A DNA stretch of 64,000 nucleotides from a virus. Below the pieces are notes generated by a model. It saw only the letters and a program-made list of their open reading frames with translations. It ran no database searches and was not told the origin of the DNA. Positions 49,469 through 62,968 of this stretch are shown here, in pieces (position 1 is the stretch's first letter; each line of letters begins with the position of its first letter). The translations under genes were made by a program, and so were the position numbers. The stretch is from positions 1 through 64,000 of IMG/VR virus record IMGVR_UViG_3300031578_000005; one strand, written 5' to 3'.

Positions 49469-49494
49469 TTATTTTAAAAATTATTTGCAGTTAT

Positions 49495-49526
49495 TGTAAC
49501 ATTTACTATCTTTGCTACGTATTTAT
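49495..49526 (+). promoter_or_regulatory. Putative promoter of tRNA operon 1 (TGTAAC-N17-CGTATTTA)
   Basis: Near-identical to 51500-51530; motif recurs at least 9 times. Confidence 0.7.
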
Positions 49527-49745
49527 AAAAAGGAGTATAAATTCCATCCATTGTTTTTACGTGAATGGAATGTAAGCGGCAAATGCTAATCCTGATTGAG
49601 AATATACTAAAGTAAGGAATAATCATATTGTCGGGTTCAGGGATTGAATCCTACATTAAGCAAAAACGGGATGAGGCGTTGCCATTAGGTGAGTCTATGA
49701 CCCCCGAAGCCCAACCCGTCAGTTTTGCTGTGGGTGGTAGTTCAC
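49527..49745 (+). mobile_element. Non-autonomous IS200/IS605-type remnant (omegaRNA/right end only)
   Basis: Ends gaagcccaaccc...gggtggtagTTCAC; TTTAT immediately 5'. Confidence 0.65.
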
Positions 49746-49797
49746 AAAATGCAAGCCTATTATTTAGGCAGTTAATTAAATTGAAGAATTAGAAATT

Positions 49798-49872
49798 ATG
49801 AAAAATTTTACACATACTCAGCCCCAACCGCAACAACATCCACAAGAAGTTGAATGGGGAAAATATGTTTAA
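49798..49872 (+). CDS. Leader peptide 1 MKNFTHTQPQPQQHPQEVEWGKYV
   Basis: 10 of 11 consecutive codons are Pro/Gln/His; precedes terminator and Pro/His/Gln tRNAs. Confidence 0.85.
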   Translation: MKNFTHTQPQPQQHPQEVEWGKYV

Positions 49873-49901
49873 AAATTTTAAGAATATTTTAAAATGAACA
49901 T

Positions 49902-49931
49902 AGACCCCATTCGAAAGAGTGGGGTTTTTTT
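49902..49931 (+). terminator. Attenuator terminator 1
   Basis: accccattc-gaaa-gagtggggt plus T run. Confidence 0.85.
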
Positions 49932-50067: not shown

Positions 50068-50156
50068 CGAGTAGTAGCTCTGTAGCTGGTAGCAGTCCCG
50101 TCTTGGAAACGGGTGGAATATAAAATCCCTCGCAGGTTCGAACCCTGCCTATTCGA
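50068..50156 (+). tRNA. tRNA-Pro(TGG) with long variable arm
   Basis: cgagtag/ctattcg; cccgt-ctTGGaa-acggg; extra arm gga-atataaaa-tcc. Confidence 0.8.
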
Positions 50157-50214
50157 CTGGTAGTCAAAGAGTTATATTGATTTCTACTTTGACTGTAAAA
50201 AAATCCATATATAT

Positions 50215-50375: not shown

Positions 50376-50458
50376 TGTCCTCTGGCAGAATGGCTATTGC
50401 ATCGCCCTTTGAAGGCGACACCCGAAACGGTTTACAGGTTCGAATCCTGTGAGGACTA
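50376..50458 (+). tRNA. tRNA-Gln(TTG) with long variable arm
   Basis: tcgcc-ctTTGaa-ggcga; extra arm ccg-aaa-cgg. Confidence 0.8.
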
Positions 50459-50466
50459 CACTATAT

Positions 50467-50856: not shown

Positions 50857-50969
50857 AGAAAACGCTAAAATAAATGGTGAATGGGGCGACCATGTAAGAA
50901 AATGGGGCAAATTTTTCACAGCTAAATTACGTAGAAATATTGATAAACAAATAATTAAAAAAGAGTACG

Positions 50970-51377
50970 ATGAATTATAATTTATTCTTAGATGATATAA
51001 GAGTTCCTAGAAATGTATACTCATATATACATAATCCCATATACGCTATGGATGAGTGGATAATTGTTCGAAACTATGATGATTTTGTAAAATACATTGA
51101 AAAAAATGGTATGCCCGAAAAAATTTCTTTTGATCATGATTTATCAGCAGAACATTATGACCCGGACTTATATGGTAGTGAAACATATGATGAAGTATAT
51201 GATCAATTTGAAGAAAAAACCGGATATGATTGTGCTAAATGGCTCATTAATTACTGTATTGAAAATAAATTAGATTTGCCCAATGAAATCCTAATTCACT
51301 CGATGAATATTACCGGTGGGTTGAACATCAAATCATTATTTGATACTTACAATAAATCATTAAAAGTAAATTCGTGA
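50970..51377 (+). CDS. Cyclic-phosphate-processing receiver-like domain protein
   Basis: LFLDDIR.P, ISFDHDL, KTGYDCAKWL, HSMN. Confidence 0.75.
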   Translation: MNYNLFLDDIRVPRNVYSYIHNPIYAMDEWIIVRNYDDFVKYIEKNGMPEKISFDHDLSAEHYDPDLYGSETYDEVYDQFEEKTGYDCAKWLINYCIENKLDLPNEILIHSMNITGGLNIKSLFDTYNKSLKVNS

Positions 51378-51499
51378 TTTGCAAATTGCAAATTATTATG
51401 TGTTGAGATTATAAGTACTAAAATTTATTACTAGAACATATTAATAATCAACAACATATAAATTAAACTAAAAATAATTTAAAAAAAGTTTGCAGATAT

Positions 51500-51530
51500 T
51501 GTAACATTTACTAACTTTGTTGCGTATTTA
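51500..51530 (+). promoter_or_regulatory. Putative promoter of tRNA operon 2 (TGTAAC-N17-CGTATTTA)
   Basis: Recurrent motif 46 nt upstream of leader 2. Confidence 0.7.
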
Positions 51531-51576
51531 GATAAAACGAATTAAGAATTTTTGAATAATTAAATAAATAATACAA

Positions 51577-51666
51577 ATGAAAAATTTACTCGACATATTG
51601 ATGGTAGTCTTAGCAGTTGACCTATTATGGGCAGATGCAGAGGATAAACTATGTTTAGTCGGGTAA
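51577..51666 (+). CDS. Leader peptide 2 MKNLLDILMVVLAVDLLWADAEDKLCLVG
   Basis: 18 of codons 4-23 are Leu/Val/Asp/Ala/Glu/Trp, matching the downstream tRNAs. Confidence 0.82.
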   Translation: MKNLLDILMVVLAVDLLWADAEDKLCLVG

Positions 51667-51693
51667 TGAAAAATTACACTCCTTTCTTAATTG

Positions 51694-51727
51694 AAAAACC
51701 CGACAACTAAAAATGGTCGGGTTTTTT
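51694..51727 (+). terminator. Attenuator terminator 2
   Basis: aaaaacccgac-loop-gtcgggtttttt. Confidence 0.85.
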
Positions 51728-51808
51728 GTTTTTATAGAAAGGATGTTCTTTGACATGTTGGAAATTTAAAAATAATTGGAGTGGGTTTGTAATCCACTCC
51801 TAAATAAC

Positions 51809-51878
51809 GACTGCGTAGTATAATGGCTAGTATTTCTCACTGTCTATGAGAGGGCGGGGTTCGAATCCCACGTAGTCG
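51809..51878 (+). tRNA. tRNA-Asp(GTC)
   Basis: tctca-ctGTCta-tgaga, G73. Confidence 0.85.
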
Positions 51879-51882
51879 GCAT

Positions 51883-51956
51883 GGTGCGTTTGGCAAGTTG
51901 GTTAAGCCGTAAGACCTTCAATTTTACATTCATGGGTTCGAGTCCCATACGCACTA
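51883..51956 (+). tRNA. tRNA-Glu(TTC)
   Basis: taaga-ccTTCaa-tttta (C33). Confidence 0.8.
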
Positions 51957-51962
51957 CGATAT

Positions 51963-52034
51963 GTTCGGTTCGAATAATGGTCAGTTCACAAAATTTTCAA
52001 TTTTGTTATAGCGGTTCAAATCCGCTACCGAGTA
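51963..52034 (+). tRNA. tRNA-Glu(TTC)
   Basis: caaaa-ttTTCaa-ttttg. Confidence 0.85.
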
Positions 52035-52173
52035 CATTTAAAAACATACGGTTTAGGACCGTTATGGTTTCGACCATAGAAGAGTGACGATGTTCGCTAC
52101 TACGTCACTCTTTAATTTAAAAATCTTGACAATACCGCTATTATTTAATACATTTGCAATAAATCTTGAAATC

Positions 52174-52665
52174 ATGGCATTGGATGTTAATAGTGAAAAG
52201 GGTAAAGAAAGCGTTCGTCAAGAAGCTGAAATGTTAAAAGGTGTTGAAAAATGCTGGAATTATAATGTCGTTGTGACAAATAAAAATAAAGAGGCAATTT
52301 GTGATGGTTTTTTAGTAAAAAAAAGAGAAGTTGTTGCAATATTTGAAAGTAAATGTAGGGACCTATCATATAATGAATTGGAAAATTATGGTTCATGGCT
52401 TATTACATATGATAAAATAAAAACCTGTAAATATTTATCTGAATTATTGAAAGTACCATTTATTGGTTTCTTGTATCTAATCAAAGACAATATCACACTT
52501 TTTTGGAAAATCACTGATTCAGATGGAAAGTACTTATTTGAATTTAATCATAATAAAACATTAACGCAAGAAACAATTAATGGTGGCAAAATATACAGAG
52601 ATAATGCATATTTGCCATTTTCAGAAGCTAAATTTGTTCACAAAGAAGAAATTATGTTTCCATAA
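52174..52665 (+). CDS. PD-(D/E)XK-family nuclease-like protein
   Basis: CDGFL...FESKCR. Confidence 0.6.
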   Translation: MALDVNSEKGKESVRQEAEMLKGVEKCWNYNVVVTNKNKEAICDGFLVKKREVVAIFESKCRDLSYNELENYGSWLITYDKIKTCKYLSELLKVPFIGFLYLIKDNITLFWKITDSDGKYLFEFNHNKTLTQETINGGKIYRDNAYLPFSEAKFVHKEEIMFP

Positions 52666-52715
52666 TGAATGATATTACAAACACAATTAATTAATTTGTT
52701 TATAATATAGTACAT

Positions 52716-52786
52716 GGGGAATTGGCGTAAAGGTAGCGTATTTGGCTTACATCCAATTGGCAATAGTTCGATTCTATTATTCCCTA
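52716..52786 (+). tRNA. tRNA-Val(TAC)
   Basis: ggggaat/attccct; ttgg-ctTACat-ccaa. Confidence 0.82.
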
Positions 52787-52939
52787 CTTCGTCTGGAAAA
52801 TCCAGAAATAAATTAGCAGTTATCGGCTTATTCATCGATAAACATTCGTTATCGGTTATTAAGACGATAAAGCTATCTGGAAAATTCAGATAATTTCACA
52901 AAATCATTGTTTTATTTAAAATAAACTCAGTATATTTAT

Positions 52940-53089
52940 AACTTGTCAGTATAAGACATTAAAACCTCGTTAGGGACTAACGAGTACACGAGTGGAGTAA
53001 AAGTAAGACTTCTAGCTTTTCGGAGCAGTAAGCAAATTGCCGTGAAACTCGAAGCTCAATCCATCACGAAGTGTGGATGGGTAGTTCAC
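52940..53089 (+). mobile_element. Second non-autonomous IS200/IS605-type remnant (omegaRNA/right end only)
   Basis: Ends gaagctcaatcc...ggatgggtagTTCAC; TTTAT immediately 5'. Confidence 0.65.
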
Positions 53090-53173
53090 ATAGGTATCGT
53101 CTAAAGGTAAGACGCTTCCCGTCCGAGGGAAGAGATGGGAACTGCAGATAAGGTTCAATTCCTCCTGCCTATG
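53090..53173 (+). tRNA. Atypical tRNA-like gene (8-nt anticodon loop, identity undetermined)
   Basis: ataggta/tgcctat acceptor, gtct/agac D-stem, cttcc-cgtccgag-ggaag, ggttcaattcc. Confidence 0.55.
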
Positions 53174-53178
53174 CAAAT

Positions 53179-53262
53179 GCTCTTATGGTGCAACTGGAGT
53201 GAGACACAGCAGTCTTAGAAACTGTTTCTTAAATGGTGTGGGTTCGAGTCCCACTAAGAGCA
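53179..53262 (+). tRNA. tRNA-Leu(TAG)
   Basis: gcagt-ctTAGaa-actgt. Confidence 0.85.
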
Positions 53263-53939
53263 CAATTTACTTCTAACTTATTATTGATTACATTAATAAC
53301 AATATTTAAATATTTTATTGAGGTTTGTTCTTTGAAATACTTTTGTTGGGAGACATCGATTATACATAATTCAATTCCTTGTTCTAAACAGGCTTGAAAC
53401 TTACGTTGGTCATTATTTTGGATTTGACCTAATTTATCTTCACCAAATATTGGTTCGTAATGGAAAATACCATTAAGTTCAAATGCTAATTTAAGTGAGG
53501 GAATGTAAATATCTAATTCTGAATTGATGGTTGTTTTATTATTGAATAATATTTCTAAATTTCGGTATTGTTTGGTTAATTCAGTTTCAAGATATTGCTC
53601 AAGTTTCGACCTACGATTACCATTTGTTTTGTGTTTATTATTATATGTGGCAGCACATGAACGTGAACAAAAGTGATTGGTAGATTTTTTTTTATCTGAT
53701 AATTGAATCGTAATATTGTTGCCACAATTAGTACATTGAATTATTTCTTTTTTACCTTGTGACGATTGATAACAATTTAATGAACAATATTTACCACTAA
53801 ATTTAGCACTTTTACATGGGATTTGTTTTATTTTACGTTTTGTTAAATAAAAAATATTTGCACAGCCATAACATTTGCATGGTAATTTATCTAATGATTT
53901 TGATGTTAAAAACTCTTGTTCTGTATATAATTTAATCAT
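53229..53939 (-). CDS. Zinc-finger PD-(D/E)XK putative homing endonuclease
   Basis: Several CxxC/FCS.SC motifs, ELDIYIP..KLAFELNG..HY; antisense within the tRNA cluster. Confidence 0.75.
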   Translation of the reverse strand: MIKLYTEQEFLTSKSLDKLPCKCYGCANIFYLTKRKIKQIPCKSAKFSGKYCSLNCYQSSQGKKEIIQCTNCGNNITIQLSDKKKSTNHFCSRSCAATYNNKHKTNGNRRSKLEQYLETELTKQYRNLEILFNNKTTINSELDIYIPSLKLAFELNGIFHYEPIFGEDKLGQIQNNDQRKFQACLEQGIELCIIDVSQQKYFKEQTSIKYLNIVINVINNKLEVNCALSGTRTHTI

Positions 53940-54088
53940 ATAATGATGTTTATAATAAATACTTATAATATTCATTTTCTGTACGTATCATCAGTACAAA
54001 ATTTATCGAAATAAAAAACTGCTTATTCTGGGGGATGATAGTAAGTTCCAGACACTAAGGTAGGGGTGATAGTCTACATAGGCGTAAT

Positions 54089-54162
54089 GGGGTCGTAGCT
54101 CAATTGGCGAGAGCACCGCACTTGCAATGCGGAGGTTAGGGAATCGTGCTCCCTCGACTCCA
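54089..54162 (+). tRNA. tRNA-Ala(TGC)
   Basis: G3:U70, ccgca-ctTGCaa-tgcgg; atypical T-loop. Confidence 0.9.
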
Positions 54163-54216
54163 CAAATGACTGTAAATCAACAATTTACAGTCATTATTTA
54201 AAGTAATCATTTACAT

Positions 54217-54303
54217 GGCTCAGTGGTGGAAATGGCAAGACACGCAGGACTTAAAATCCTGTCCACCGAAAGGTGGGTGTGGGTTCGACTCCCATCTGAG
54301 CTA
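54217..54303 (+). tRNA. tRNA-Leu(TAA)
   Basis: cagga-ctTAAaa-tcctg, long variable arm. Confidence 0.92.
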
Positions 54304-54392
54304 CAATTACCGGATATTGCCAGATAAAATTTTAGTTTATTGATTATCAAATATTTAATAAATTATATTTTACCAGATATTGCCGGATACAT

Positions 54393-54466
54393 GGCTCTAT
54401 AACCCAAATGGTAGAGGTGGTGTCTTCAAACGGCATTTGTTTTCAGTTCGAATCTGAATAGAGCTA
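54393..54466 (+). tRNA. tRNA-Leu(CAA) lacking the long variable arm
   Basis: ggctcta/tagagct; gtgtc-ttCAAac-ggcat. Confidence 0.75.
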
Positions 54467-54494
54467 CAACAGTATTTATAATAAAACTAAGGTT

Positions 54495-54980
54495 ATGAAT
54501 TATAAATTATTTTCTTACTTAATGATGATACTGGTGTTTGTATCATATGTTGTATTCATCTGGTCAAGATATGGCATACAAAAATCAATATCTGCCAGTT
54601 ATTATGTATTGCCTGAAAAAATCAATGTGTTATTCACATTATTTTGTTGGGGATTTGCATTTCCTGCGATAATTGTTGCACAAACGCCATTAATGTTTTT
54701 GGCAGGTTCTGCAATTGTTTTTGTTGGTGCTGCCGCAAGATTTAAAGAAAAACTAACAAAATCTGTTCATATGATAAGTGCTACAATTGGTGTTATTTTA
54801 AGTCAGGCATCAATATTTTTTGATTATCACCTGTGGCATCTTAATGCAATATTTGTATTATCGTCATTAATTATATTAGGTGTGCTATATTTTAAACACA
54901 TCGATAAATATATATGGTGGATTGAAATTTTTGCATTTTCAACAATATGTATTGCATTAGGTATTAATTCAATATTTTAA
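54495..54980 (+). CDS. Multi-pass membrane protein
   Basis: Five to six hydrophobic segments; SISASYY motif. Confidence 0.75.
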   Translation: MNYKLFSYLMMILVFVSYVVFIWSRYGIQKSISASYYVLPEKINVLFTLFCWGFAFPAIIVAQTPLMFLAGSAIVFVGAAARFKEKLTKSVHMISATIGVILSQASIFFDYHLWHLNAIFVLSSLIILGVLYFKHIDKYIWWIEIFAFSTICIALGINSIF

Positions 54981-54985
54981 AATAC

Positions 54986-55056
54986 ACGTCTTTGTTGTAA
55001 TGGTAGCATAAATCTCTCCAAAAGATTTAGTACTTGTTCGAATCGAGTAAGACGTG
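54986..55056 (+). tRNA. tRNA-Trp(CCA)
   Basis: aatct-ctCCAaa-agatt, G73. Confidence 0.85.
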
Positions 55057-55118
55057 CAAAATAAAGTTTATTGAAACAATTACTTTTGCTGTTCGAGATT
55101 GTTTTTATGTTAAAATAA

Positions 55119-55475
55119 ATGATTATGAATAGCAAAACAGATAATTTTTCAGATATTGAAATAATTAAAATACTTTCAGAGTGTAAATCATTTAGAGAGG
55201 TTTTAATTAAAATCGGTTATAGTAGTAATGGAAGCGGTGGTTATAGTCTACTCAAACAACAATTAAAAAAACGTGGCATTCAAATACCTAAATATCATTA
55301 TTATGGTGATGGAAAAAAACGTAGCTTATATACATTAGATGAAATTTTAGTTGAGAATTCAACATATACTGCAAGAGGTCGATTAAAAAAACGTTTGGTT
55401 AAAGAAGGTATGTTAGAATATAAATGTGTTTCTGATAACACAATACGTAAATGGCTTAAATTATATGAAAAATAA
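55119..55475 (+). pseudogene. Internally deleted HNH-endonuclease-like gene
   Basis: L.EILVENS.Y....LK.RL..EG..EYKC joined directly to VSDNTIRKW; HNH core missing. Confidence 0.6.
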
Positions 55476-55489
55476 ATGTGCTAATACAT

Positions 55490-55560
55490 GCGTCTATCGT
55501 TCAACGGTAAGACAACTGCTTCCAAACCAGTTAATGAGGGTTCGATTCGTTCCCGGTGTG
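55490..55560 (+). tRNA. Degenerate tRNA-Trp(CCA), probable pseudogene
   Basis: ttCCAaa loop; mismatched acceptor and T stems. Confidence 0.5.
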
Positions 55561-55689
55561 CTAAATCGAATTTAAATTTTAGTGGAATAATTTCAGCTTT
55601 GATTTTCATTTGTAACAAAACCAATTTTTTTTCGTATATATTACCAATAATATTTGTTAATTAACACAAAATGATTTAAATTTGCTATT

Positions 55690-56406
55690 ATGTATATAAT
55701 CTCAAAAAAGAAAGATTTTTATGATGGTGTTGTCTCGACAATGGGTATTGATAAGTCTATTGTTTTTAATCGAGATGATGTTGAAATTGGAGAAAATGAA
55801 TATCCAAAATTATTTAGCCACTCCAAAGGTTATTGGAATTCATTAATGAATGATACCATTAATAATTTACATCACCACAATATAAAAAAAGAGCATAAAG
55901 GCGATTATCAAGCATATAACTATTTTGTTATTGGATTTTGTGGAAAACTTTATTTGGGTATGAAGTTATATACAAAAAGTCAGAACATCTTTGATGGTTT
56001 AACAACAAAAATAATTTATGATATTGACTTAATTACTGAAATTATTGAAAACACCGGCTATCGAAGCAATTTAATTGATGAAATTAATTATGTTCGTAAT
56101 TATAATGCATTAGACATTTTTAGAAAATTTAATACACCTGTATTTGTATATGATAATGACTATAACCGAATCTCGATCAATGATAGAAATGAGCATAAGT
56201 TCATTATTAACGCCAATATATACGAATATGAATTTTATAAAATCTTTGATAGTTTTCATGCATTCCAAGAAATTCAAATGTTTATTAGCGGTGTATTGGG
56301 TAGTGGTGAAAAGGAAATAATCAAAATTACAGATAAAGATAAAATCGCTCAACATGGCTTTGACTATAAATATAGTTTTAGAAAAGATAAAGAAAATAAA
56401 AAATAA
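55690..56406 (+). CDS. Hypothetical protein
   Basis: KDFYD...IGFCGK.Y...FQEIQMFI..VL...KI..HGFD...SFR. Confidence 0.75.
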   Translation: MYIISKKKDFYDGVVSTMGIDKSIVFNRDDVEIGENEYPKLFSHSKGYWNSLMNDTINNLHHHNIKKEHKGDYQAYNYFVIGFCGKLYLGMKLYTKSQNIFDGLTTKIIYDIDLITEIIENTGYRSNLIDEINYVRNYNALDIFRKFNTPVFVYDNDYNRISINDRNEHKFIINANIYEYEFYKIFDSFHAFQEIQMFISGVLGSGEKEIIKITDKDKIAQHGFDYKYSFRKDKENKK

Positions 56407-56413
56407 GTTCTTT

Positions 56414-56776
56414 GGGGGTGACCGGATTTGACAGCATGTTAGACTGGTAATGTAAGCAGGTAGTAGTTGAATCAGGCTACTTTAAAAAGGTTCAAAGTTA
56501 TAAACGCAAACAATTCCGAGGACATTATGTCCATTCCGACTTCACACTTAATTGTGGGAAGAAGTGCATTTGCAGAGAAAACTGAACTCGCATTTGCTGC
56601 ATAGGAAATAACTAATACAGTTAAGAACTCCTGAGTTGAAAGGATAAATTTAATACAGTTTCATGTTTGAACTGGTAGAATCAATCAATACTTTGTCGGT
56701 TTAGAGAAATCGAATAAACCTGTAGAAAACGTATTAATCACATGTGTGGACGTGGGTTCGAATCCCACTACCTCCA
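56414..56776 (+). ncRNA. ssrA: tmRNA
   Basis: GGGGGTGAccGGaTTtGAC 5' end; GACGTGGGTTCGAATCCCACTACCTCCA 3' end; tag ORF 56506-56604 ending AFAA*. Confidence 0.93.
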
Positions 56777-56796
56777 CTTAAGTAATTATAAATAAG

Positions 56797-57231
56797 ATGA
56801 TTATGAGTACAGCAAGAAGTAGATTTATTGAAGCGATTGATGTTTGGATTAAGTCTGACGACGGAGAAGCCTACCTTAAAGACGAACGAATTCGACATGA
56901 AATTCAAATTGGAAGATATAAACGTTTTGATGACTGGTTGAAATGCAATGACTTTGATCTGCTAATATATCGACTAATTTTAAAGCATGACATAAGCTAT
57001 CGTGAAAAATATTATCATAATGGATTCGAACCCGGACCAAATAATTTATTACAATTCATTTTTGACTATATCGACAATAAATTCGAACCAATTGCCGTAG
57101 CTGAACTTGATTGCGAATTTTCAAATAATATCTGGTTATTTAAAGGATATTATTTTCAATGTATTTATGGTCAAGGAGCAATATTTAAAATATATAATAA
57201 AGCAGATATGCGAGAAATAATATCAATATAG
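56797..57231 (+). CDS. Hypothetical protein
   Basis: ORF. Confidence 0.65.
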   Translation: MIMSTARSRFIEAIDVWIKSDDGEAYLKDERIRHEIQIGRYKRFDDWLKCNDFDLLIYRLILKHDISYREKYYHNGFEPGPNNLLQFIFDYIDNKFEPIAVAELDCEFSNNIWLFKGYYFQCIYGQGAIFKIYNKADMREIISI

Positions 57232-57383
57232 ATGAAAAAAATCAAGCAACAAAAAAACGATGACTGTAATTGTGGTAAGTCAGTTAAAATAACAGAAAGA
57301 AAAAAATTAATATATAAGAACAATAAGAAATGAAAGAAAATTTTAAAGTCTTGTAATGCAACTCAAATGTTGCTACAAGAATA

Positions 57384-57713
57384 ATGAAAGTAAAAAAAAT
57401 TGTAGATTCAACAACAAATCGTTATGTATTCAATCGTGCGTATAAAGAATATTTAGAACGCAAAGGTAAAATTCGTTGCTCTTATTGCCAATTTCATAAA
57501 AATGAAAATGATAATAGAAAATGGTATGGTGGAATAAAACATAATGAATTTTATGATGATATGTTGACATGTTATGGTGGTGTTAAAGAAACTCATACTA
57601 GATATCCTAATTGGAAATTAATTTCTAAAAATAAGAAACAGTGGATGAATAAAGGAATTAAAATCACTGAAAAATATGATTTAAAACGTATTTATATTGA
57701 AATAAAATTTTGA
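57384..57713 (+). CDS. Hypothetical protein
   Basis: CSYC..H..EN motif. Confidence 0.65.
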   Translation: MKVKKIVDSTTNRYVFNRAYKEYLERKGKIRCSYCQFHKNENDNRKWYGGIKHNEFYDDMLTCYGGVKETHTRYPNWKLISKNKKQWMNKGIKITEKYDLKRIYIEIKF

Positions 57714-57724
57714 GGTAATCACAT

Positions 57725-57798
57725 GGCGACATCGTTCAATGATAGGACAGCTCTCTCATAAGGAGTTGATACGAGTTCAATTCTCGTTATCCCAACCA
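57725..57798 (+). tRNA. tRNA(CAT), Met or Ile2, weak acceptor stem
   Basis: gctct-ctCATaa-ggagt, encoded CCA, three acceptor mismatches. Confidence 0.6.
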
Positions 57799-57845
57799 TT
57801 GGTCATTTTTGTACTAAGATAGTATTTATATTTAAAAGTACATTT

Positions 57846-58499
57846 ATGGCAAGAAAGGAAAAAACATATCATTTTATTTACAAAACGACCAATCTATTGA
57901 ATGACAAATATTATTATGGAATGCATTCCACTTATGATTTGAATGATGGATATTTAGGTAGTGGTAAAAGGTTGAGATATTCAATAAATAAACACGGAAA
58001 AGAAAATCATGTTAGAGAAATTATTGAATTTTTACCAAATTATAATGAATTGATTAAAAGAGAAGAAGAAATTGTAAATTTAAATGAAATTGCAAAAGAA
58101 AATTGTTTAAATTTAAGAGTTGGAGGTTCTGGTGGTTTGAATGGATTATCTAAGGAATCGTTAATGAAGATTAGAATTGCATCGTCTAATTATATGAAAA
58201 GTTTGTGGAAAAATGGTGGTGAAGAATATCGAAATAAATTCAGTAAAATTAACACAATAAATCTAACAAATGCACATAAAAACAATAAAATAAAATATGA
58301 TAATTTTAAAAACAGAAAACATCGAAATGAAACGATTGAATTAATGAAAAAAAAGAAAATTGGTTTTGGACGTGGAAGCGATAATTCTCAATATAATACC
58401 TGTTGGGTTACAAGAAACGGAATAAATAAAAAAATAAAAAAAGAGAAACTGTCCGAATTCATTAAATTGGGATGGATTAATGGAAGAAAATTTAAATAA
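57846..58499 (+). CDS. GIY-YIG (Seg-like) homing endonuclease
   Basis: FIYKTTN...YYGMH...YLGSG. Confidence 0.85.
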   Translation: MARKEKTYHFIYKTTNLLNDKYYYGMHSTYDLNDGYLGSGKRLRYSINKHGKENHVREIIEFLPNYNELIKREEEIVNLNEIAKENCLNLRVGGSGGLNGLSKESLMKIRIASSNYMKSLWKNGGEEYRNKFSKINTINLTNAHKNNKIKYDNFKNRKHRNETIELMKKKKIGFGRGSDNSQYNTCWVTRNGINKKIKKEKLSEFIKLGWINGRKFK

Positions 58500-58522
58500 T
58501 CCTAAGTTGGCTCTGGTTTAAT

Positions 58523-58960
58523 TTAAAATTTAACAATACAATTTTTATTTTTAAAATCAAAACTTAGACCATTAATATATAATGAACTGCCCTTTTGAAG
58601 ATTTGCGTCATTATCGATAATAAATTTCCATTCGAAGTCATTGATATTTTTTGGTGTTTCTTGTTTTTGTTCATCATTTTGTTTATCAAATAATTTTAAT
58701 AAAAACGTGCCTTCGACGCTTTCAACATCAACAATAAAATTTTCAACCCCCATGTCATTTAACCAGAAAGAAATTCCCCAATTAACAACAATATCACTTT
58801 CAGTAACTTCACTATCAAATTCATTTGTGAATGCACTGTAATTGTAAAAAGATGAATTAGTTAGCCTTTCTTTAAAATGAAATCTATCATCATTCATTAT
58901 ATATGATTCATTGAGAAATTTCTGTATTTCCTCAAAAATTATAGTTTCACTTAACTTCAT
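58523..58960 (-). CDS. Hypothetical protein with IIFEEIQKFLNE leader
   Basis: ORF, late motif upstream. Confidence 0.7.
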   Translation of the reverse strand: MKLSETIIFEEIQKFLNESYIMNDDRFHFKERLTNSSFYNYSAFTNEFDSEVTESDIVVNWGISFWLNDMGVENFIVDVESVEGTFLLKLFDKQNDEQKQETPKNINDFEWKFIIDNDANLQKGSSLYINGLSFDFKNKNCIVKF

Positions 58961-59065
58961 AACAAATATATTTTAAATATAAATACTATTAATTCAATTA
59001 AAATTAATATATTTGTTTTCTGTAACAAATATAAAAACTTTACGTATATAATTTAAACATTAAAA

Positions 59066-60163
59066 ATGAAATTACTTGAAAAAATTAATTGGGAAGTCCT
59101 AGATACATATATTGAAAATGGATTGATTATGTCCAATAAGCATCCTGAATACGATATTTGGATTTTAAATTACACACCAAAAACACAATCAAAAAAGTTA
59201 TGGGATGTATATACTATATCATGTCGTGGATTAATTATCGATGTTGATGGTAATATTTTAGCCCGACCTTTTCAAAAATTTAAAAACTTTGAGGAACATG
59301 ATTCTTCAGAAATTGATATGTCATTACCTTTTGAAATATTTGAAAAGCGTGATGGATCATTAATTATATTATTTTACTACGAACTCAGAATGGAATGGAT
59401 TGTTGCATCAAGAGGTTCATTTGCTTCAGAACAATCAATTGAAGCTAAAAAAATATTAGAGTCAAAAGAAAATGCTTTTAAATTCTTAGACATAAAAAAT
59501 ACGTATTTATATGAAGTTCATTATGGCGAAAATAGAATTGTGGTAGATTATGGTGACTTAAGAGACGTGGTGTTATTAACTGTTATTAATTCAAAAACCG
59601 GCTATGAATTATCTTATGATGCAATGAATGAACAATATTCAAATTATTTTGCAATTGTCAAAAGGTTTGATATAAATATTAATTCACTGGATGATTTAAA
59701 AAAACTTGAAGAAGAAAATAAAGAAGGTTTTGTTGTTAAATTTTCGAACAATTTTAGAGTTAAAGTAAAATTTAGTGAATACATTAGATTGCATGGAATA
59801 TTAACAAATGTTTCAAACATAATTGTCTGGGAACATTTGAAGAATAACTATGATTTCGACACATTATTAGACAGAGTTCCTGACGAATTTTATTCATGGC
59901 TTAACAAAACCATTGATAAATTAAAAGGTAATTTCAATGAAATTGAAAGATTATCATTAAAAGAATTTATTAGAATTTACTATATTAATGAGATATCTAC
60001 TCGCAGAGAATTTGCAATGGAAGCAAAGAAGTGTAAATATCGATCGATCTTATTTAAATTGTATGATAAAAATCAATACGATGAAATTATCTGGAAAATG
60101 ATTAGACCAGTTTATAGTAAGCCGTTTTCTCGTCATTTTGAAAATAGTTTGGAAATTAATTAG
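59066..60163 (+). CDS. RNA ligase 1 (T4 Rnl1-like)
   Basis: CRGLI, RPFQKF.N, EKRDGSL (KxDG), SRGSF, EGFVV, RVKVK. Confidence 0.9.
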   Translation: MKLLEKINWEVLDTYIENGLIMSNKHPEYDIWILNYTPKTQSKKLWDVYTISCRGLIIDVDGNILARPFQKFKNFEEHDSSEIDMSLPFEIFEKRDGSLIILFYYELRMEWIVASRGSFASEQSIEAKKILESKENAFKFLDIKNTYLYEVHYGENRIVVDYGDLRDVVLLTVINSKTGYELSYDAMNEQYSNYFAIVKRFDININSLDDLKKLEEENKEGFVVKFSNNFRVKVKFSEYIRLHGILTNVSNIIVWEHLKNNYDFDTLLDRVPDEFYSWLNKTIDKLKGNFNEIERLSLKEFIRIYYINEISTRREFAMEAKKCKYRSILFKLYDKNQYDEIIWKMIRPVYSKPFSRHFENSLEIN

Positions 60164-60204
60164 TCCATTATACATTGTCATAGTATTTATATTAAAATAA
60201 TATT

Positions 60205-60999
60205 ATGGCATATGTATATAAACATCTCAGAAAAGATAATAATGATGTATTCTATATTGGCATTGGATTATCTAAAAATTTTAAACGAGCATATTCTAAA
60301 TGTAATAGAAATAACTATTGGAAAAATATTGTGAATAAAGTAGATTATATTATTGAAATTATTCATACAAATATTACATGGGAAGAAGCATGTAATATTG
60401 AAATAAAATTAATAAAAGAATATGGTCGAAAAGATTTGAATGAGGGTGAATTGGTTAATATGACTAACGGTGGAGATGGTATTGTTGGGTTAATTCAGAC
60501 TGATGAACATAGAAGAAAAAATAGTGAAGCAAATAAAGGAAGACCTAAAAGTACCAAACATATTGAAAAATTCAAAAATAGAATTCAGTCTGATGAAACC
60601 AAACGAAAAATTAGTTTAAAGAATAAAGGAAGAATTTGTACTGATGAAACCAAACGAAAAATTAGTGATAAATTAAAAAATAAGATGATTGGTGATAAAA
60701 ATCCGTTCTTTGGTAAAGAACATACTAATAAAGCTAAAGAACAAATAAGTAATTCCTTGAAAGGACGCAAATTGTCCGAAACAACAAAAAATAAAATATC
60801 TGAATCAAATAAAGGAAAAACTCGCATAATTTCCGAAAAATCAAAAATTAAAATGAGTATTTCTGCAAAACATAGAAACATTAGACCACCATCAAGAAAA
60901 GGAACGTGTTGGGTAACAAAAAATGGTGTAACTAAATCAATTAAAATTAATGATTTAGATTTTTACATTTTTGATGGTTGGGTAAGAGGACGTAAGTAA
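60205..60999 (+). CDS. GIY-YIG homing endonuclease with NUMOD3 repeats
   Basis: YVYKH...FYIGIG, N.T.GGDG, DETKRKIS repeats. Confidence 0.85.
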   Translation: MAYVYKHLRKDNNDVFYIGIGLSKNFKRAYSKCNRNNYWKNIVNKVDYIIEIIHTNITWEEACNIEIKLIKEYGRKDLNEGELVNMTNGGDGIVGLIQTDEHRRKNSEANKGRPKSTKHIEKFKNRIQSDETKRKISLKNKGRICTDETKRKISDKLKNKMIGDKNPFFGKEHTNKAKEQISNSLKGRKLSETTKNKISESNKGKTRIISEKSKIKMSISAKHRNIRPPSRKGTCWVTKNGVTKSIKINDLDFYIFDGWVRGRK

Positions 61000-61082
61000 T
61001 TATATAATTTTCTTTACTATTTATTAGTATGGATATTATTAAAATAATAAAAGAAGAAATTGAAACACTGATGTAGTATTGG

Positions 61083-61177
61083 TTATAACGGTTGGGTGTA
61101 TGAGAAGGTTTGCTTAGATGAACTTTCAAATTATCCACAACTGCTGATAGCAAACTTTCTTATACACCTTGTTATAC
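61083..61177 (-). repeat. attC-like site D
   Basis: TTATAAC...ggtgtatgagaaggtttgct / agcaaactttcttatacacc...GTTATAC. Confidence 0.8.
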
Positions 61178-61292
61178 ACAGTACGGTTTAATTAGGTAGA
61201 AACTAAATTGAAAACGAAATAAAAACTTTTTAAAAATGTGTGATGGAAAATTTAATTCTGAATATTTATATATAAAATAAAAACGAAATACT

Positions 61293-61685
61293 ATGAGTAA
61301 AGAAATTAGACAAATGATTGATAAAGTTAAGAACTTTAAGCAATTTGTGAATGAACAAAGAGTTCCATATAACGAATTACAAAATATGGTTAAAGATTTC
61401 TTGAATAAAGAAATTCAATTTACAATGGATGATATTCAAAAATATGTTGTTGGTAACATTGAAAGTATTGATTATCACACAAATGGTAGAGGGTTTGAAG
61501 TTAGTGTTGGTAATTATAAAAGTGGTGACGGTGTTAAAGATGGTAGGGGGTCATTATCAATATTTCCAGATGAAAATAAAATTATCTTTTCACATAATGA
61601 TTTTAAACCACACCCAGTTAGTGGTTTGAATGAATTTACGAATAATTTTTTTCAATTTATTAGTAAAATAGATTTCAAAAAATAG
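61293..61685 (+). CDS. Cassette-borne late protein with MSKEIRQMIDKVKNFKQFVNE leader
   Basis: Between sites D and E, with its own TATTTATA motif. Confidence 0.72.
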   Translation: MSKEIRQMIDKVKNFKQFVNEQRVPYNELQNMVKDFLNKEIQFTMDDIQKYVVGNIESIDYHTNGRGFEVSVGNYKSGDGVKDGRGSLSIFPDENKIIFSHNDFKPHPVSGLNEFTNNFFQFISKIDFKK

Positions 61686-61775
61686 TGAATATTTTTTGAA
61701 TGTAAAAATGTGTGGTGGAAATCTTTAAAAAGTTTTTTACATAGAACTTAATTTGAAACACTAATATAGTATTGT

Positions 61776-61866
61776 GTATAACGTTGAGTGTATGAAACGT
61801 AGCATGCACAACACTTAATATAAACCACTAACCTTGATTGGCTATGTTTTATACACGTTGTTATAA
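61776..61866 (-). repeat. attC-like site E
   Basis: GTATAAC...gtgtatgaaacgtagc / gctatgttttatacac...GTTATAA; tgtgtataac is complementary to gttatacaca of site D. Confidence 0.8.
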
Positions 61867-61976
61867 CCAGTACGGTAAAATTACCACAAATGTTAGATTG
61901 AAACACCGAACAAAAACTTTTAAAAATGTGTGACGGTAATATAATTACACTACTATTTATATTAAAATATTATTAT

Positions 61977-62299
61977 ATGGAAAATGAAATGAGAAAACTG
62001 ATTGACCAAGTTAAGAATTTTGGTAAATCATTAAACGAAAATGTTGGTAATACAACATACGCAATATATTTAGGAACTGATATTATTTATAATCATTTAT
62101 CTAATGAAAGATTAAAATCAGTACTCTATTCATTGGTGAAGATTTAGGTGAAGATTTAGGTGATTACATTATTGTTCAAAACGGAACAAACCACACCAAA
62201 CCAGCAGATGAATTAGGATGGGATTTGTCAAACGTAAAACCTTTTGATAACATTAATTCACTACGTACCAAAATAGATAATATTGCCAACAGAATTTAA
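61977..62299 (+). pseudogene. Frameshifted cassette gene with MENEMRKLIDQVKNFGKSLNE leader
   Basis: Stop at 62147 near the ggtgaagattta duplication; another frame continues to about 62299. Confidence 0.55.
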
Positions 62300-62374
62300 T
62301 TTTTTATTGTGGATTGGAGATTTTTAAAAGTTTTTGTAACAAAATGCTAATTAGAACGTATAATGTAGTATTGG

Positions 62375-62440
62375 TTATAACTATTATATATAAAACATAA
62401 CACTTAACTAATTGATTGTAAACATTAAAAACAAGTCAAC
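62375..62440. repeat. Array-terminal (attI-like) site, divergent copy 3
   Basis: tggttataac is complementary to gttataacca of site E, then TAACTA..ATATAAAAC resembling 745 and 32464. Confidence 0.5.
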
Positions 62441-62503
62441 TTTAGGAAAGTATAAAAAATTTTTTAAAGTTAAACGTAGTATTTAAAAATAATTTAAAAT
62501 TTT

Positions 62504-62533
62504 TGTAACATTTATTAGTTTATTACGTATTTA
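62504..62533 (+). promoter_or_regulatory. Putative promoter of tRNA operon 3 (TGTAAC-N16-CGTATTTA)
   Basis: Recurrent motif 32 nt upstream of leader 3. Confidence 0.7.
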
Positions 62534-62565
62534 TGATTAACTTTGTAGAATTAAAATTTGAAATA

Positions 62566-62667
62566 ATGAAAAAAGGTAACACATATTATAAAAAGTATTA
62601 TTATAAACATTATGTTTGTAAGACTGGCAATACTGTGTTGTTATCTGAAAAGGAAACTGATAATTAA
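62566..62667 (+). CDS. Leader peptide 3 MKKGNTYYKKYYYKHYVCKTGNTVLLSEKETDN
   Basis: 9 of 10 consecutive codons are Tyr/Lys; precedes terminator and Tyr/Lys tRNAs. Confidence 0.85.
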   Translation: MKKGNTYYKKYYYKHYVCKTGNTVLLSEKETDN

Positions 62668-62684
62668 AGATAAACGATACTAAC

Positions 62685-62723
62685 AAAAAACCCGGTCTTA
62701 ATTTAATAAGACCGGGTTTTTTT
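62685..62723 (+). terminator. Attenuator terminator 3
   Basis: aaaaaacccggtctta-atttaa-taagaccgggttttttt. Confidence 0.88.
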
Positions 62724-62831: not shown

Positions 62832-62915
62832 GCATCCATGCCAGAGAGGTTATGGACTGGACTTTTAATCCAGACTCCGAACGGAGTAACGTAGATTCGA
62901 GTTCTACTGGATGCA
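62832..62915 (+). tRNA. tRNA-Lys(TTT) with long variable arm
   Basis: ctgga-ctTTTaa-tccag; extra arm actcc-gaac-ggagt. Confidence 0.8.
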
Positions 62916-62968
62916 CAGTGGGGACTGTTTATAATTTTCATAGTACATGAAAGCGTAGAAAATTAAAT

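Follow-up and report, generated by a model that had tools for sequence, protein, structure and literature searches.

A short open reading frame of 29 codons, placed before an intrinsic terminator and a long tRNA array in a phage genome, probably serves as leader to a ribosome-mediated transcription attenuator of the trp type, which gates the tRNA operon. The window analysed here, 64,000 nucleotides in length, covers positions 1-64,000 of IMG/VR record IMGVR_UViG_3300031578_000005, and the whole phage record has 128.5 kb. At the locus, the terminator (51694-51733) comes after the reading frame (51577-51666), and beyond it lie Asp, Glu, Glu, Val, Leu, Ala, Leu, Leu and Trp tRNAs, a tmRNA and a weak CAT tRNA. 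This is the second of four leader-terminator-tRNA units in the record, whose tRNAs combined cover all 20 amino acids, and the leader-terminator unit was also found across a clade of jumbo phages of about 320-365 kb, with 74 distinct leader-terminator pairs. The uncultured jumbo phage probably has a member of the Bacteroidota as its host, as judged by the promoter motif, and this soil phage probably makes the tRNAs of the array only when ribosomes are short of them.

49798..49927, + strand: sister unit 1, with leader MKNFTHTQPQPQQHPQEVEWGKYV, terminator and downstream tRNAs for Pro, Pro, His, Gln, Gln and Gln (ORF reading, composition, folds)
51489..51519, + strand: promoter-like motif TTTG-N19-TAACTTTG, 58 nt before the leader ATG (motif scan)
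51577..51666, + strand: leader ORF, 29 codons and stop (ORF reading, composition, relatives)
51586..51594, + strand: region 1 (TTACTCGAC), pairing with region 2 as protector (ribosome-free fold; alignment)
51586..51645, + strand: candidate control codons 4-23, L L D I L M V V L A V D L L W A D A E D (composition analysis)
51658..51666, + strand: region 2 (GTCGGGTAA), antiterminator 5′ strand, ending in the stop codon (folds, duplexes, covariation)
51673..51688, + strand: conserved pyrimidine-rich spacer element (ATTACACTCCTTTCTT) (alignment of relatives)
51694..51704, + strand: region 3 (AAAAACCCGAC), terminator 5′ arm (terminator fold, covariation)
51716..51733, + strand: region 4 (GTCGGG), terminator 3′ arm and T-run (terminator fold, covariation)
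51745..51767, + strand: conserved GTTCTTTGACATGTTGGAAATTT directly upstream of the first tRNA (comparison of units)
51808..52035, + strand: tRNA-Asp(gtc), tRNA-Glu(ttc) and tRNA-Glu(ttc), starting at 51808, 51883 and 51963 (ARAGORN, Rfam)
52716..52787, + strand: tRNA-Val(tac) (ARAGORN, Rfam)
53179..53263, + strand: tRNA-Leu(tag) (ARAGORN, Rfam)
54089..54467, + strand: tRNA-Ala(tgc), tRNA-Leu(taa) and tRNA-Leu(caa), starting at 54089, 54217 and 54393 (ARAGORN, Rfam)
54986..55057, + strand: tRNA-Trp(cca) (ARAGORN, Rfam)
55653..55684, + strand: second promoter-like motif, directly before ORF 55690-56406 and the tmRNA, a possible internal promoter (motif scan)
56414..56779, + strand: tmRNA (ARAGORN, 56414-56777; Rfam; 111.8 bits)
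57725..57794, + strand: tRNA with CAT anticodon, weak copy (Rfam, 42 bits)
62566..62722, + strand: sister unit 3, with a Tyr/Lys-rich leader, a terminator and downstream tRNAs for Tyr, Lys, Lys and Tyr (composition, folds)

In the proposed mechanism, transcription would start at the promoter-like motif 51489-51519, and a ribosome reading the leader quickly would proceed to the stop codon, masking region 2, upon which the terminator would fold and transcription would stop before the tRNAs. With scarce tRNAs, the ribosome would stall at codons for Leu, Val, Asp, Ala, Glu, Met or possibly Trp, leaving region 2 free to pair with the terminator 5′ arm while the 3′ arm is still to be transcribed, and RNA polymerase would continue into the tRNA genes. 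With no ribosome, region 1 would pair with region 2 and termination would prevail. A shortage of decoding capacity would in this way switch on the genes supplying that capacity. We infer that the leader is translated, that its translation is coupled to termination and that this shortage is the signal sensed.

Leader composition and conservation

The leader translates as MKNLLDILMVVLAVDLLWADAEDKLCLVG, and 22/28 of its residues belong to the set Asp, Glu, Val, Leu, Ala, Trp and Met, versus 34% expected (binomial P 1.7e-6). It ranks first for set enrichment among the 631 small ATG ORFs of 20-45 codons on both strands of the 128.5-kb record, and the sets of the other three units are at or below expectation in it. 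The original prediction that leader codons match the amino acids of the downstream tRNAs was thereby confirmed, and the sister leaders likewise match their own tRNA sets, with 10/23 residues for Pro/His/Gln, 13/32 for Tyr/Lys and, outside the window, 35/40 for a leader built on eight amino acids (Cys/Asn/Ile/Ser/Phe/Gly/Thr/Arg), the set being scored with Gln, which that array also carries. The codon list originally given was incomplete, as CTC, GTC and GTT are also present; because these encode Leu and Val, ATA and ATG nevertheless remain the sole source of other amino acids in codons 4-23. ATA (Ile) is kept in the leader of relatives, yet tRNA-Ile sits in a different operon. A chance small ORF beside an ordinary terminator is extremely improbable: AT-rich DNA is rich in small ORFs, as the 631 in this record illustrate, but the first rank, the conservation in 26 relatives and the control terminators described below contradict it.

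An unbiased scan with a neighbouring protein yielded 63 loci, and with further fetched regions added, the four classes comprised 22, 26, 16 and 10 distinct leaders. The leader peptide is conserved (LLDIL...LLWA..ED) over 26 relatives, which could also be read as the mark of a small hydrophobic-acidic protein with its own function, the terminator merely ending its transcript. This reading is highly improbable, given that acidic and hydrophobic residues swap freely within the set (e.g., E/V/A/L at one column), that the sister peptides are of unrelated composition, each mirroring its own tRNAs, and that in many units the first tRNA lies 39-75 nt past the terminator start with no promoter motif between. 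Such a motif occurs between terminator and first tRNA in only 5/74 units; the sister unit at 49798 has one after its terminator.

All 54 gap runs in alignment columns 1-84 (25 sequences) are multiples of three, and 39/62 substitutions in control columns stay within the set versus 24.6 expected (P 1.9e-4); variation by codon position 1/2/3 is 39/39/56, the third being only modestly higher. The kept frame, the substitutions within the set and the composition match in four classes argue against an RNA switch operated by a protein, a small RNA or Rho instead of the ribosome, with the ORF as a by-product of RNA constraints, since such constraints alone predict no particular amino acids. In favour of this switch, which we consider very unlikely, region 2 and the blocks CTCGAC, CTATTATGGGC and CTCCTTTCTT are conserved as nucleotides, the pyrimidine-rich spacer is unexplained, and the leader has no Shine-Dalgarno sequence before it, as was also the case at the long-ORF starts inspected. 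The reading frame of the region 2 motif is altered in 3/26 relatives with the nucleotides unchanged.

Judging from the related arrays, a tRNA gain is mirrored in the leader: the leader core of both Pro/His/Gln arrays with Arg(acg) contains CGC, a rare codon, and that of the other 20 does not (Fisher P 0.0043, kinship not corrected for). The same hardware might instead respond to general translation speed, amino-acid starvation or infection stage, with the tRNA-set match only tuning the threshold of each operon. Classical attenuators (the trp, his and ilv leaders) sense charged tRNA, and therefore amino-acid supply would be read too. In 12/26 relatives, moreover, the leader unchanged retains codons for tRNAs not called by ARAGORN in the array, some loci being cut by contig ends, and the promoter looks host-type, which would fit an early timing role. 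One array has Asp, Leu and Met only (L038), and two have Asp, Trp and Leu only (L039 and L040), apart from an additional Met in L040. However, a general signal hardly explains why each of the four leaders fits its own array with an amino-acid set disjoint from the others, and the co-occurrence of the CGC codon with Arg(acg) also speaks against it, so that we regard another signal as unlikely and favour sensing of tRNA shortage.

Terminator, antiterminator and protector

The leader, antiterminator, protector and terminator of the original prediction are all present and are kept in 26 distinct relatives. The terminator (51694-51733) consists of an 11-pair stem and a T-run, with 98.5% of cells paired and six compensatory pairs in 25 sequences, which was matched by 0/500 shuffles. 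By direct reading of the letters, GTCGGGT stands at 51658-51664 and ACCCGAC at 51698-51704; the leader 3′ end pairs with the terminator 5′ arm, and both change together. In one relative (L001), the stem CCCGAC/GTCGGG is replaced by CTCGACC/GGTCGAG and region 2 correspondingly becomes GGTCGAGA, and in the Cys class the terminator arms vary among lineages and the leaders vary with them. Leader-arm duplexes have a mean energy of -15.3 kcal/mol for own pairs versus -9.65 for cross-class pairs, and the median z of antiterminator pairing is -3.04 for tRNA-preceding terminators (n=67) versus 0.17 for control terminators with no tRNAs after them (n=45; Mann-Whitney P 1.6e-14). The GTCGGGT/ACCCGAC antiterminator was thus supported by compensatory changes and control terminators. 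The predicted protector pairing of regions 1 and 2 forms in the ribosome-free fold and is kept across 25 sequences, where 92% of cells are paired, but covariation lends it no support.

Equilibrium folds of the full leader always retain the terminator in 3/4 units, the unit at 51577 among them, and the switch therefore has to operate kinetically. Folds of the nascent transcript showed the antiterminator only with a ribosome on the control codons, its A site at codons 3-15 and 21-23, and in the single-ribosome model a stall at codons 17-19, the Trp codon included, gives the protector, not the antiterminator. Within the spacer element, CTCCTTTCTT is retained in about 20/25 aligned relatives (counted by eye); a pairing of this element with the leader ORF was tried and rejected.

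Relation to known regulatory systems

Leader-peptide attenuation is a textbook mechanism whose known targets make or charge amino acids, and the enterobacterial multivalent leaders, ilvGMEDA (Ile/Val/Leu) and thr (Thr/Ile), precede biosynthetic-enzyme genes and sense two or three amino acids. As in these attenuators, the phage unit combines a short ORF rich in control amino acids with an intrinsic terminator and an overlapping antiterminator set by ribosome position. The predicted ORF lies near the transcript 5′ end, 58 nt past the promoter-like motif and upstream of the tRNAs, its control codons are enriched for the amino acids of those tRNAs, the terminator stands between leader and tRNA genes, and in silico the antiterminator uses the same 5′ arm as the terminator and is prevented by a ribosome sitting at the leader end. 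Unlike ilvGMEDA and thr, however, the unit precedes tRNA genes, with a leader built from six or seven amino acids. It resembles the E. coli trp attenuator (1:2, 2:3, 3:4) in its four regions and in a 1:2 pairing that would give termination without translation, whereas in the phage unit the stop codon itself forms the end of region 2, its control codons are spread over about 20 codons instead of two, and its output is tRNA, and therefore the loop would close on the sensor's own input. Since the attenuation switch here seems to control the tRNA genes themselves, decoding speed (input) and tRNA (output) would form a direct loop.

T-boxes bind uncharged tRNA directly, without translation, and regulate synthetase and amino-acid genes; like them, the phage unit is proposed to respond to tRNA status by choosing between terminator and antiterminator. 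Rfam searches of the locus gave no match to the T-box model, no match to leader families (Leu, His, Thr, Trp, etc.) at gathering score, and chance-level matches only in E-value mode (e.g., STnc240, 26.8 versus 55 bits). Our literature search found no account of leader-peptide attenuation of phage tRNA operons. According to the available text of PMC8421152, a long accessory tRNA array of Anabaena PCC 7120 is induced by translation stress, similar to the phage proposal in that accessory tRNAs are switched on when translation is impaired. Unlike the phage unit, that array comes with no leader-peptide mechanism in the same text, which contains none of the terms leader, attenuat, terminator and small ORF.

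Our results raise the possibility, which we put forward tentatively, that the complete decoding repertoire is divided among four tRNA operons of the phage, each attenuated through a leader of its own, as a supply-and-demand translation controller. If so, the controller could sense when specific host tRNAs are lost (e.g., owing to anticodon nucleases or codon-usage mismatch) and replace just those, and the unit at 51577 would have the most multivalent leader known and may also gate the tmRNA. Attenuation of tRNA genes as such would account for the way large phages carry dozens of these genes at no constant cost, connect phage tRNA arrays with host tRNA depletion in a testable manner, and offer compact codon-specific sensors to synthetic biology, with the 74 natural variants of the clade as a possible guide for mutagenesis.

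The downstream array and promoter-like motifs

The genes downstream of the terminator are tRNAs, tmRNA and homing endonucleases, one homing-endonuclease gene lying on the minus strand within the array, instead of genes making or charging the sensed amino acids. Of the distal CAT tRNA predicted at 57725, the presence of a tRNA is supported by Rfam, but ARAGORN calls Met(cat) only when its threshold is relaxed, and the acceptor stem has mismatches; in relatives, a well-called tRNA-Met(cat) closes the corresponding array. In 26 related loci, the tmRNA follows the Trp tRNA and precedes the Leu/Met tRNAs. Its membership in the attenuated unit is uncertain and it may have its own promoter, as the motif at 55653-55684 could drive the tmRNA and CAT tRNA separately from the leader.

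The promoter-like motif has nine + strand matches in 128.5 kb, that at 51489 among them, and near-identical copies precede sister leaders at 49484 and 71946. Across the clade it precedes 60/74 leaders versus a background of 0.048 per 330 nt, and TAnnTTTG is the Bacteroides -7 consensus in the available text of PMC4747536. Directly before the first tRNA, GTTCTTTGACATGTTGGAAATTT is found in most Asp-class and Cys-class units.

Layout and extent of the Asp-class unit

The Asp-class unit (unit 2) lies in the window, which makes up the first half of an IMG/VR virus record of 128,513 bp with 29% G+C and 39% CheckV completeness, in which ARAGORN called 32 tRNAs and one tmRNA. The leader, terminator and tRNA array are present as originally predicted, and direct reading of the sequence found the strings named in that prediction at their coordinates.

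Features of the Asp-class unit
51577-51666, + strand: leader ORF, 29 codons, MKNLLDILMVVLAVDLLWADAEDKLCLVG
51694-51726, + strand, T-run to 51733: terminator hairpin, 11 pairs, AAAAACCCGAC / GTCGGGTTTTT
from 51808, + strand: tRNA array, Asp, Glu, Glu, Val, Leu(tag), Ala, Leu(taa), Leu(caa), Trp
53229-53975 (- strand), 55119-55475 and 57846-58499: homing-endonuclease ORFs in the tRNA array
56414-56779, + strand: tmRNA, 3′ of tRNA-Trp
57725-57794, + strand: weak CAT tRNA at the distal end of the array

Small ORFs are interspersed among the array tRNAs, and three encode homing endonucleases, one of the three on the minus strand, where it overlaps the tRNA-Leu(tag) 3′ end. The tRNA-Leu(caa) (54393-54467) is just 75 nt long, and odd lengths also occur in Pro (90 nt, 50068-50157), Gln (84 nt, 50376-50459) and Lys (85 nt, 62832-62916) tRNAs. 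A cREC_REC (cyclic-phosphate-processing receiver domain) protein is encoded directly 5′ of the leader (50970-51377), and a T4-type RNA ligase gene (59066-60163) lies 3′ of the array; their position flanking the tRNAs suggests an RNA-repair setting.

The original prediction had envisaged a long operon, possibly reaching the tmRNA. No strong + strand terminator was found in 51733-62685 and no phage-type promoter motif in 51501-59022. Since a host-type promoter motif (55653-55684), immediately 5′ of an ORF (55690-56406) and the tmRNA, precedes the latter, the tRNAs through Trp are the safe content of the unit; membership of the tmRNA and CAT tRNA is uncertain, and these may be co-transcribed with unit 2, separately driven, or both. 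The tmRNA lies between the Trp and Leu/Met tRNAs in related loci (n = 26).

Leader composition, tRNA sets and relatives

Among the 28 leader residues after the start, 22 belong to the unit 2 set (D, E, V, L, A, W, M), 34% being expected from the long ORFs of the record (P = 1.7e-6), and of the small ATG ORFs counted over both strands (n = 631), the leader has the best in-set composition. These values bear out the prediction that the leader amino acids mirror the downstream tRNA set; the predicted codon list holds for the amino acids but left out three codons for Leu or Val, namely CTC, GTC and GTT. The record carries four tRNA arrays that together cover all 20 amino acids, each lying 3′ of its own small ORF and strong terminator, and the terminators of the tRNA units account for 4 of its 16 distinct strong + strand terminators.

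Leaders of the three sister units
Unit 1 (Pro/His/Gln class): MKNFTHTQPQPQQHPQEVEWGKYV, before Pro, Pro, His, Gln, Gln, Gln; 10 of 23 residues in set
Unit 3 (Tyr/Lys class): Tyr/Lys-rich, before Tyr, Lys, Lys, Tyr; 13 of 32 in set
Unit 4 (Cys class): 72020-72145 of the record, outside the window, MKTLTININISTSTSSRIGDSIFCSNFNGRIGNILSGFSFY, before Cys, Asn, Ile, Ser, Phe, Gly, Thr, Arg; 35 of 40 in set

Each of the four leaders scores at or under expectation for the other three sets, the in-set fractions carrying a bias toward the hypothesis of at most 3-fold per unit, as the ORF with the highest fraction was chosen where several (at most three) ended near one terminator.

Relatives were gathered with an alignment of a 238-aa protein encoded inside the array, a search blind to the leader, and 63 loci from virus records were recovered, several of these records being complete (320-365 kb). 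Almost every locus at 41-53% protein identity contains the same three arrays, identically ordered, with a homologous leader and terminator preceding each. Distinct leader–terminator pairs numbered 22, 26, 16 and 10 for units 1-4 (74 in all), the Pro/His/Gln class excluding L051, whose leader is cut by the contig start, and the non-member L074, and the total including ten extra regions for unit 4. Leader and terminator were found in 8 of these ten regions; L089 has the array without a terminator call, and L090 is without tRNAs. In five loci at 24-30% protein identity with different tRNA orders (L065, L070, L071, L074 and L075), the script found no such unit. Exact matching of the leader promoter gave no hit beyond the record, a distant blastn search of GenBank phages with 50900-52700 matched two records over the upstream cREC gene only, and a pattern search for the Cys-class leader returned one lineage, already in the collection. 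No close cultured relative was found, the best being Ralstonia phage RsoM2USA (29%), which has no annotated tRNAs near the homologue, and Xanthomonas phage XaC1 (28%).

The motif TTTG-N17-21-TAnnTTTG occurs upstream of 60 of the 74 leaders (background in the same loci, 0.048 per 330 nt), and TAnnTTTG is the Bacteroides -7 consensus (PMC4747536). Between terminator and first tRNA, a gap often of 39-75 nt, a phage-type promoter motif was present in only 5 of the 74 units. The promoter motif of unit 1 (49484-49514) lies about 280 nt 5′ of the leader here and 18-49 nt from it in most motif-bearing relatives; the extra stretch (49515-49797) has a higher G+C and no Rfam match, and may be an insertion or an RNA element. 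A second promoter-like motif, GTAACA-~18 nt-TATAAT, has 29 + strand copies and one - strand copy (97-126 kb of the record; 30947, 59022 and 62336 in the window), several of them embedded in hairpins followed by a T-run.

Pairing between leader and terminator

Because, in equilibrium folds of the full leaders, only the Pro/His/Gln unit switched and the other three, unit 2 among them, retained the terminator, nascent-transcript folding was adopted, with the transcript ending before the terminator 3′ arm and the ribosome footprint masked. In these folds, the terminator 5′ arm of all four units pairs near the leader end when the ribosome is on the control codons and is released once it moves past them; in ribosome-free unit 2 RNA, the protector between 51586-51594 and 51658-51666 forms instead.

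The duplex between leader and terminator 5′ arm has a mean energy of -15.3 kcal/mol over the 74 pairs, against -9.65 for leaders with arms of other classes, and its median z versus dinucleotide shuffles ranges from -2.6 to -3.5. Its position is constant within each class, and that of unit 2 ends at the stop codon. For terminators with a tRNA downstream (n = 67 distinct), the upstream sequence complementary to the 5′ arm scores a median z of -3.04, with 81% below -2, compared with 0.17 and 4% for control terminators of the same loci without a following tRNA (n = 45; P = 1.6e-14), the strongest of which appears to be a unit 2 terminator overlooked by the 800-nt rule.

In a 25-sequence alignment, pairing in the unit 2 terminator reaches 98.5%, and 6 of its pairs are compensatory (0/500 shuffles). 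The predicted antiterminator, GTCGGGT with ACCCGAC, is 98.9% paired with 2 compensatory pairs (2-7/500 shuffles) and is also supported by the control comparison. The predicted protector is upheld by the ribosome-free fold and by 92% pairing, but not by covariation. In L001, a relative, the stem CCCGAC/GTCGGG has become CTCGACC/GGTCGAG and region 2 (51658-51666 in unit 2) has become GGTCGAGA; in the fourth class, the terminator arms vary widely and the leaders change with them.

Other elements near the terminator are also conserved. The spacer CTCCTTTCTT (51673-51688) is pyrimidine-rich and resembles the 16S rRNA 3′ tail. Its pairing with GAGGA of the ORF was rejected: 78% of cells were paired, slid positions gave 57-74%, and covariation was absent. 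On visual inspection of 25 relatives, a helix of the spacer with the purine-rich 51736-51743 after the T-run appears compensatory in about 18, but it failed the shuffle test (median z -0.73; at most 5/200 shuffles reach the observed value in only 2 of 26); as an unproven candidate, it would, in read-through RNA, place the terminator on top of a longer helix. Most Asp- and Cys-class units conserve the block GTTCTTTGACATGTTGGAAATTT (51745-51767) directly 5′ of the first tRNA, and some Pro-class units have a shortened form; it is too near the tRNA to be its promoter and may be a processing signal. Between this block and tRNA-Asp, a hairpin GGAGTGG-9 nt-CCACTCC (51778-51800) is absent from the relatives read.

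Reading frame and leader–array change

Gap runs in the unit 2 control region come in multiples of three (54/54), and the region 2 nucleotides are retained across three reading frames (23, 1 and 2 sequences). Unit 1 likewise keeps GAATGGG while EWG becomes LNGD or VNGN, its gap-run alignment omitting L056/L059. At set-consensus columns, 39 of 62 distinct replacements remain in the set, with 24.6 expected from single-base neighbours (P = 1.9e-4), and acidic and hydrophobic residues are swapped at identical leader columns; the same test in the Pro/His/Gln class gave no signal (5/12 in set, 4.8 expected). Variation by codon position is 39/39/56, somewhat higher at the third. The top nucleotide-level conservation of the leader, at CTATTATGGGC (Leu-Leu-Trp-Ala, 51622-51632), exceeds codon logic alone.

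The pairing control, the composition and the frame support the original interpretation of unit 2 as a leader-peptide attenuator of tRNA genes, a mechanism that we infer from sequence alone. It would share its hardware with the trp and ilv leaders and differ from them in regulating tRNA genes. Comparison with Rfam gave no matching family, full-text searches of one literature library (main text only) did not turn up any report of tRNA genes under leader-peptide attenuation, and the text of the nearest paper, on an inducible tRNA array of Anabaena (PMC8421152), contains no leader, attenuation or terminator.

Leader and array change together in part. Two Pro/His/Gln arrays, L037 and L042, contain a tRNA-Arg(acg) and have CGC in the leader core, a codon absent from the core of the other 20 leaders of this class and used about once in 1000 codons in these genomes (Fisher P = 0.0043, uncorrected for kinship and possibly reflecting a single event). 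Losses of tRNAs are not mirrored: all set residues of the leader have a called tRNA in 19/22, 14/26 and 14/16 arrays of units 1-3; some loci are truncated at contig ends, and ARAGORN may overlook odd tRNAs. Codons for Glu, Val, Ala and Trp persist in the leader of L038, and those for Glu, Val and Ala in L039/L040, with the matching tRNAs uncalled in the arrays. In relatives, ARAGORN also called a CUA-anticodon (amber-reading) tRNA at the end of the fourth array (L013, 12386-12463; L083, reverse strand, 12354) and several tRNA-like genes with four-base anticodons.
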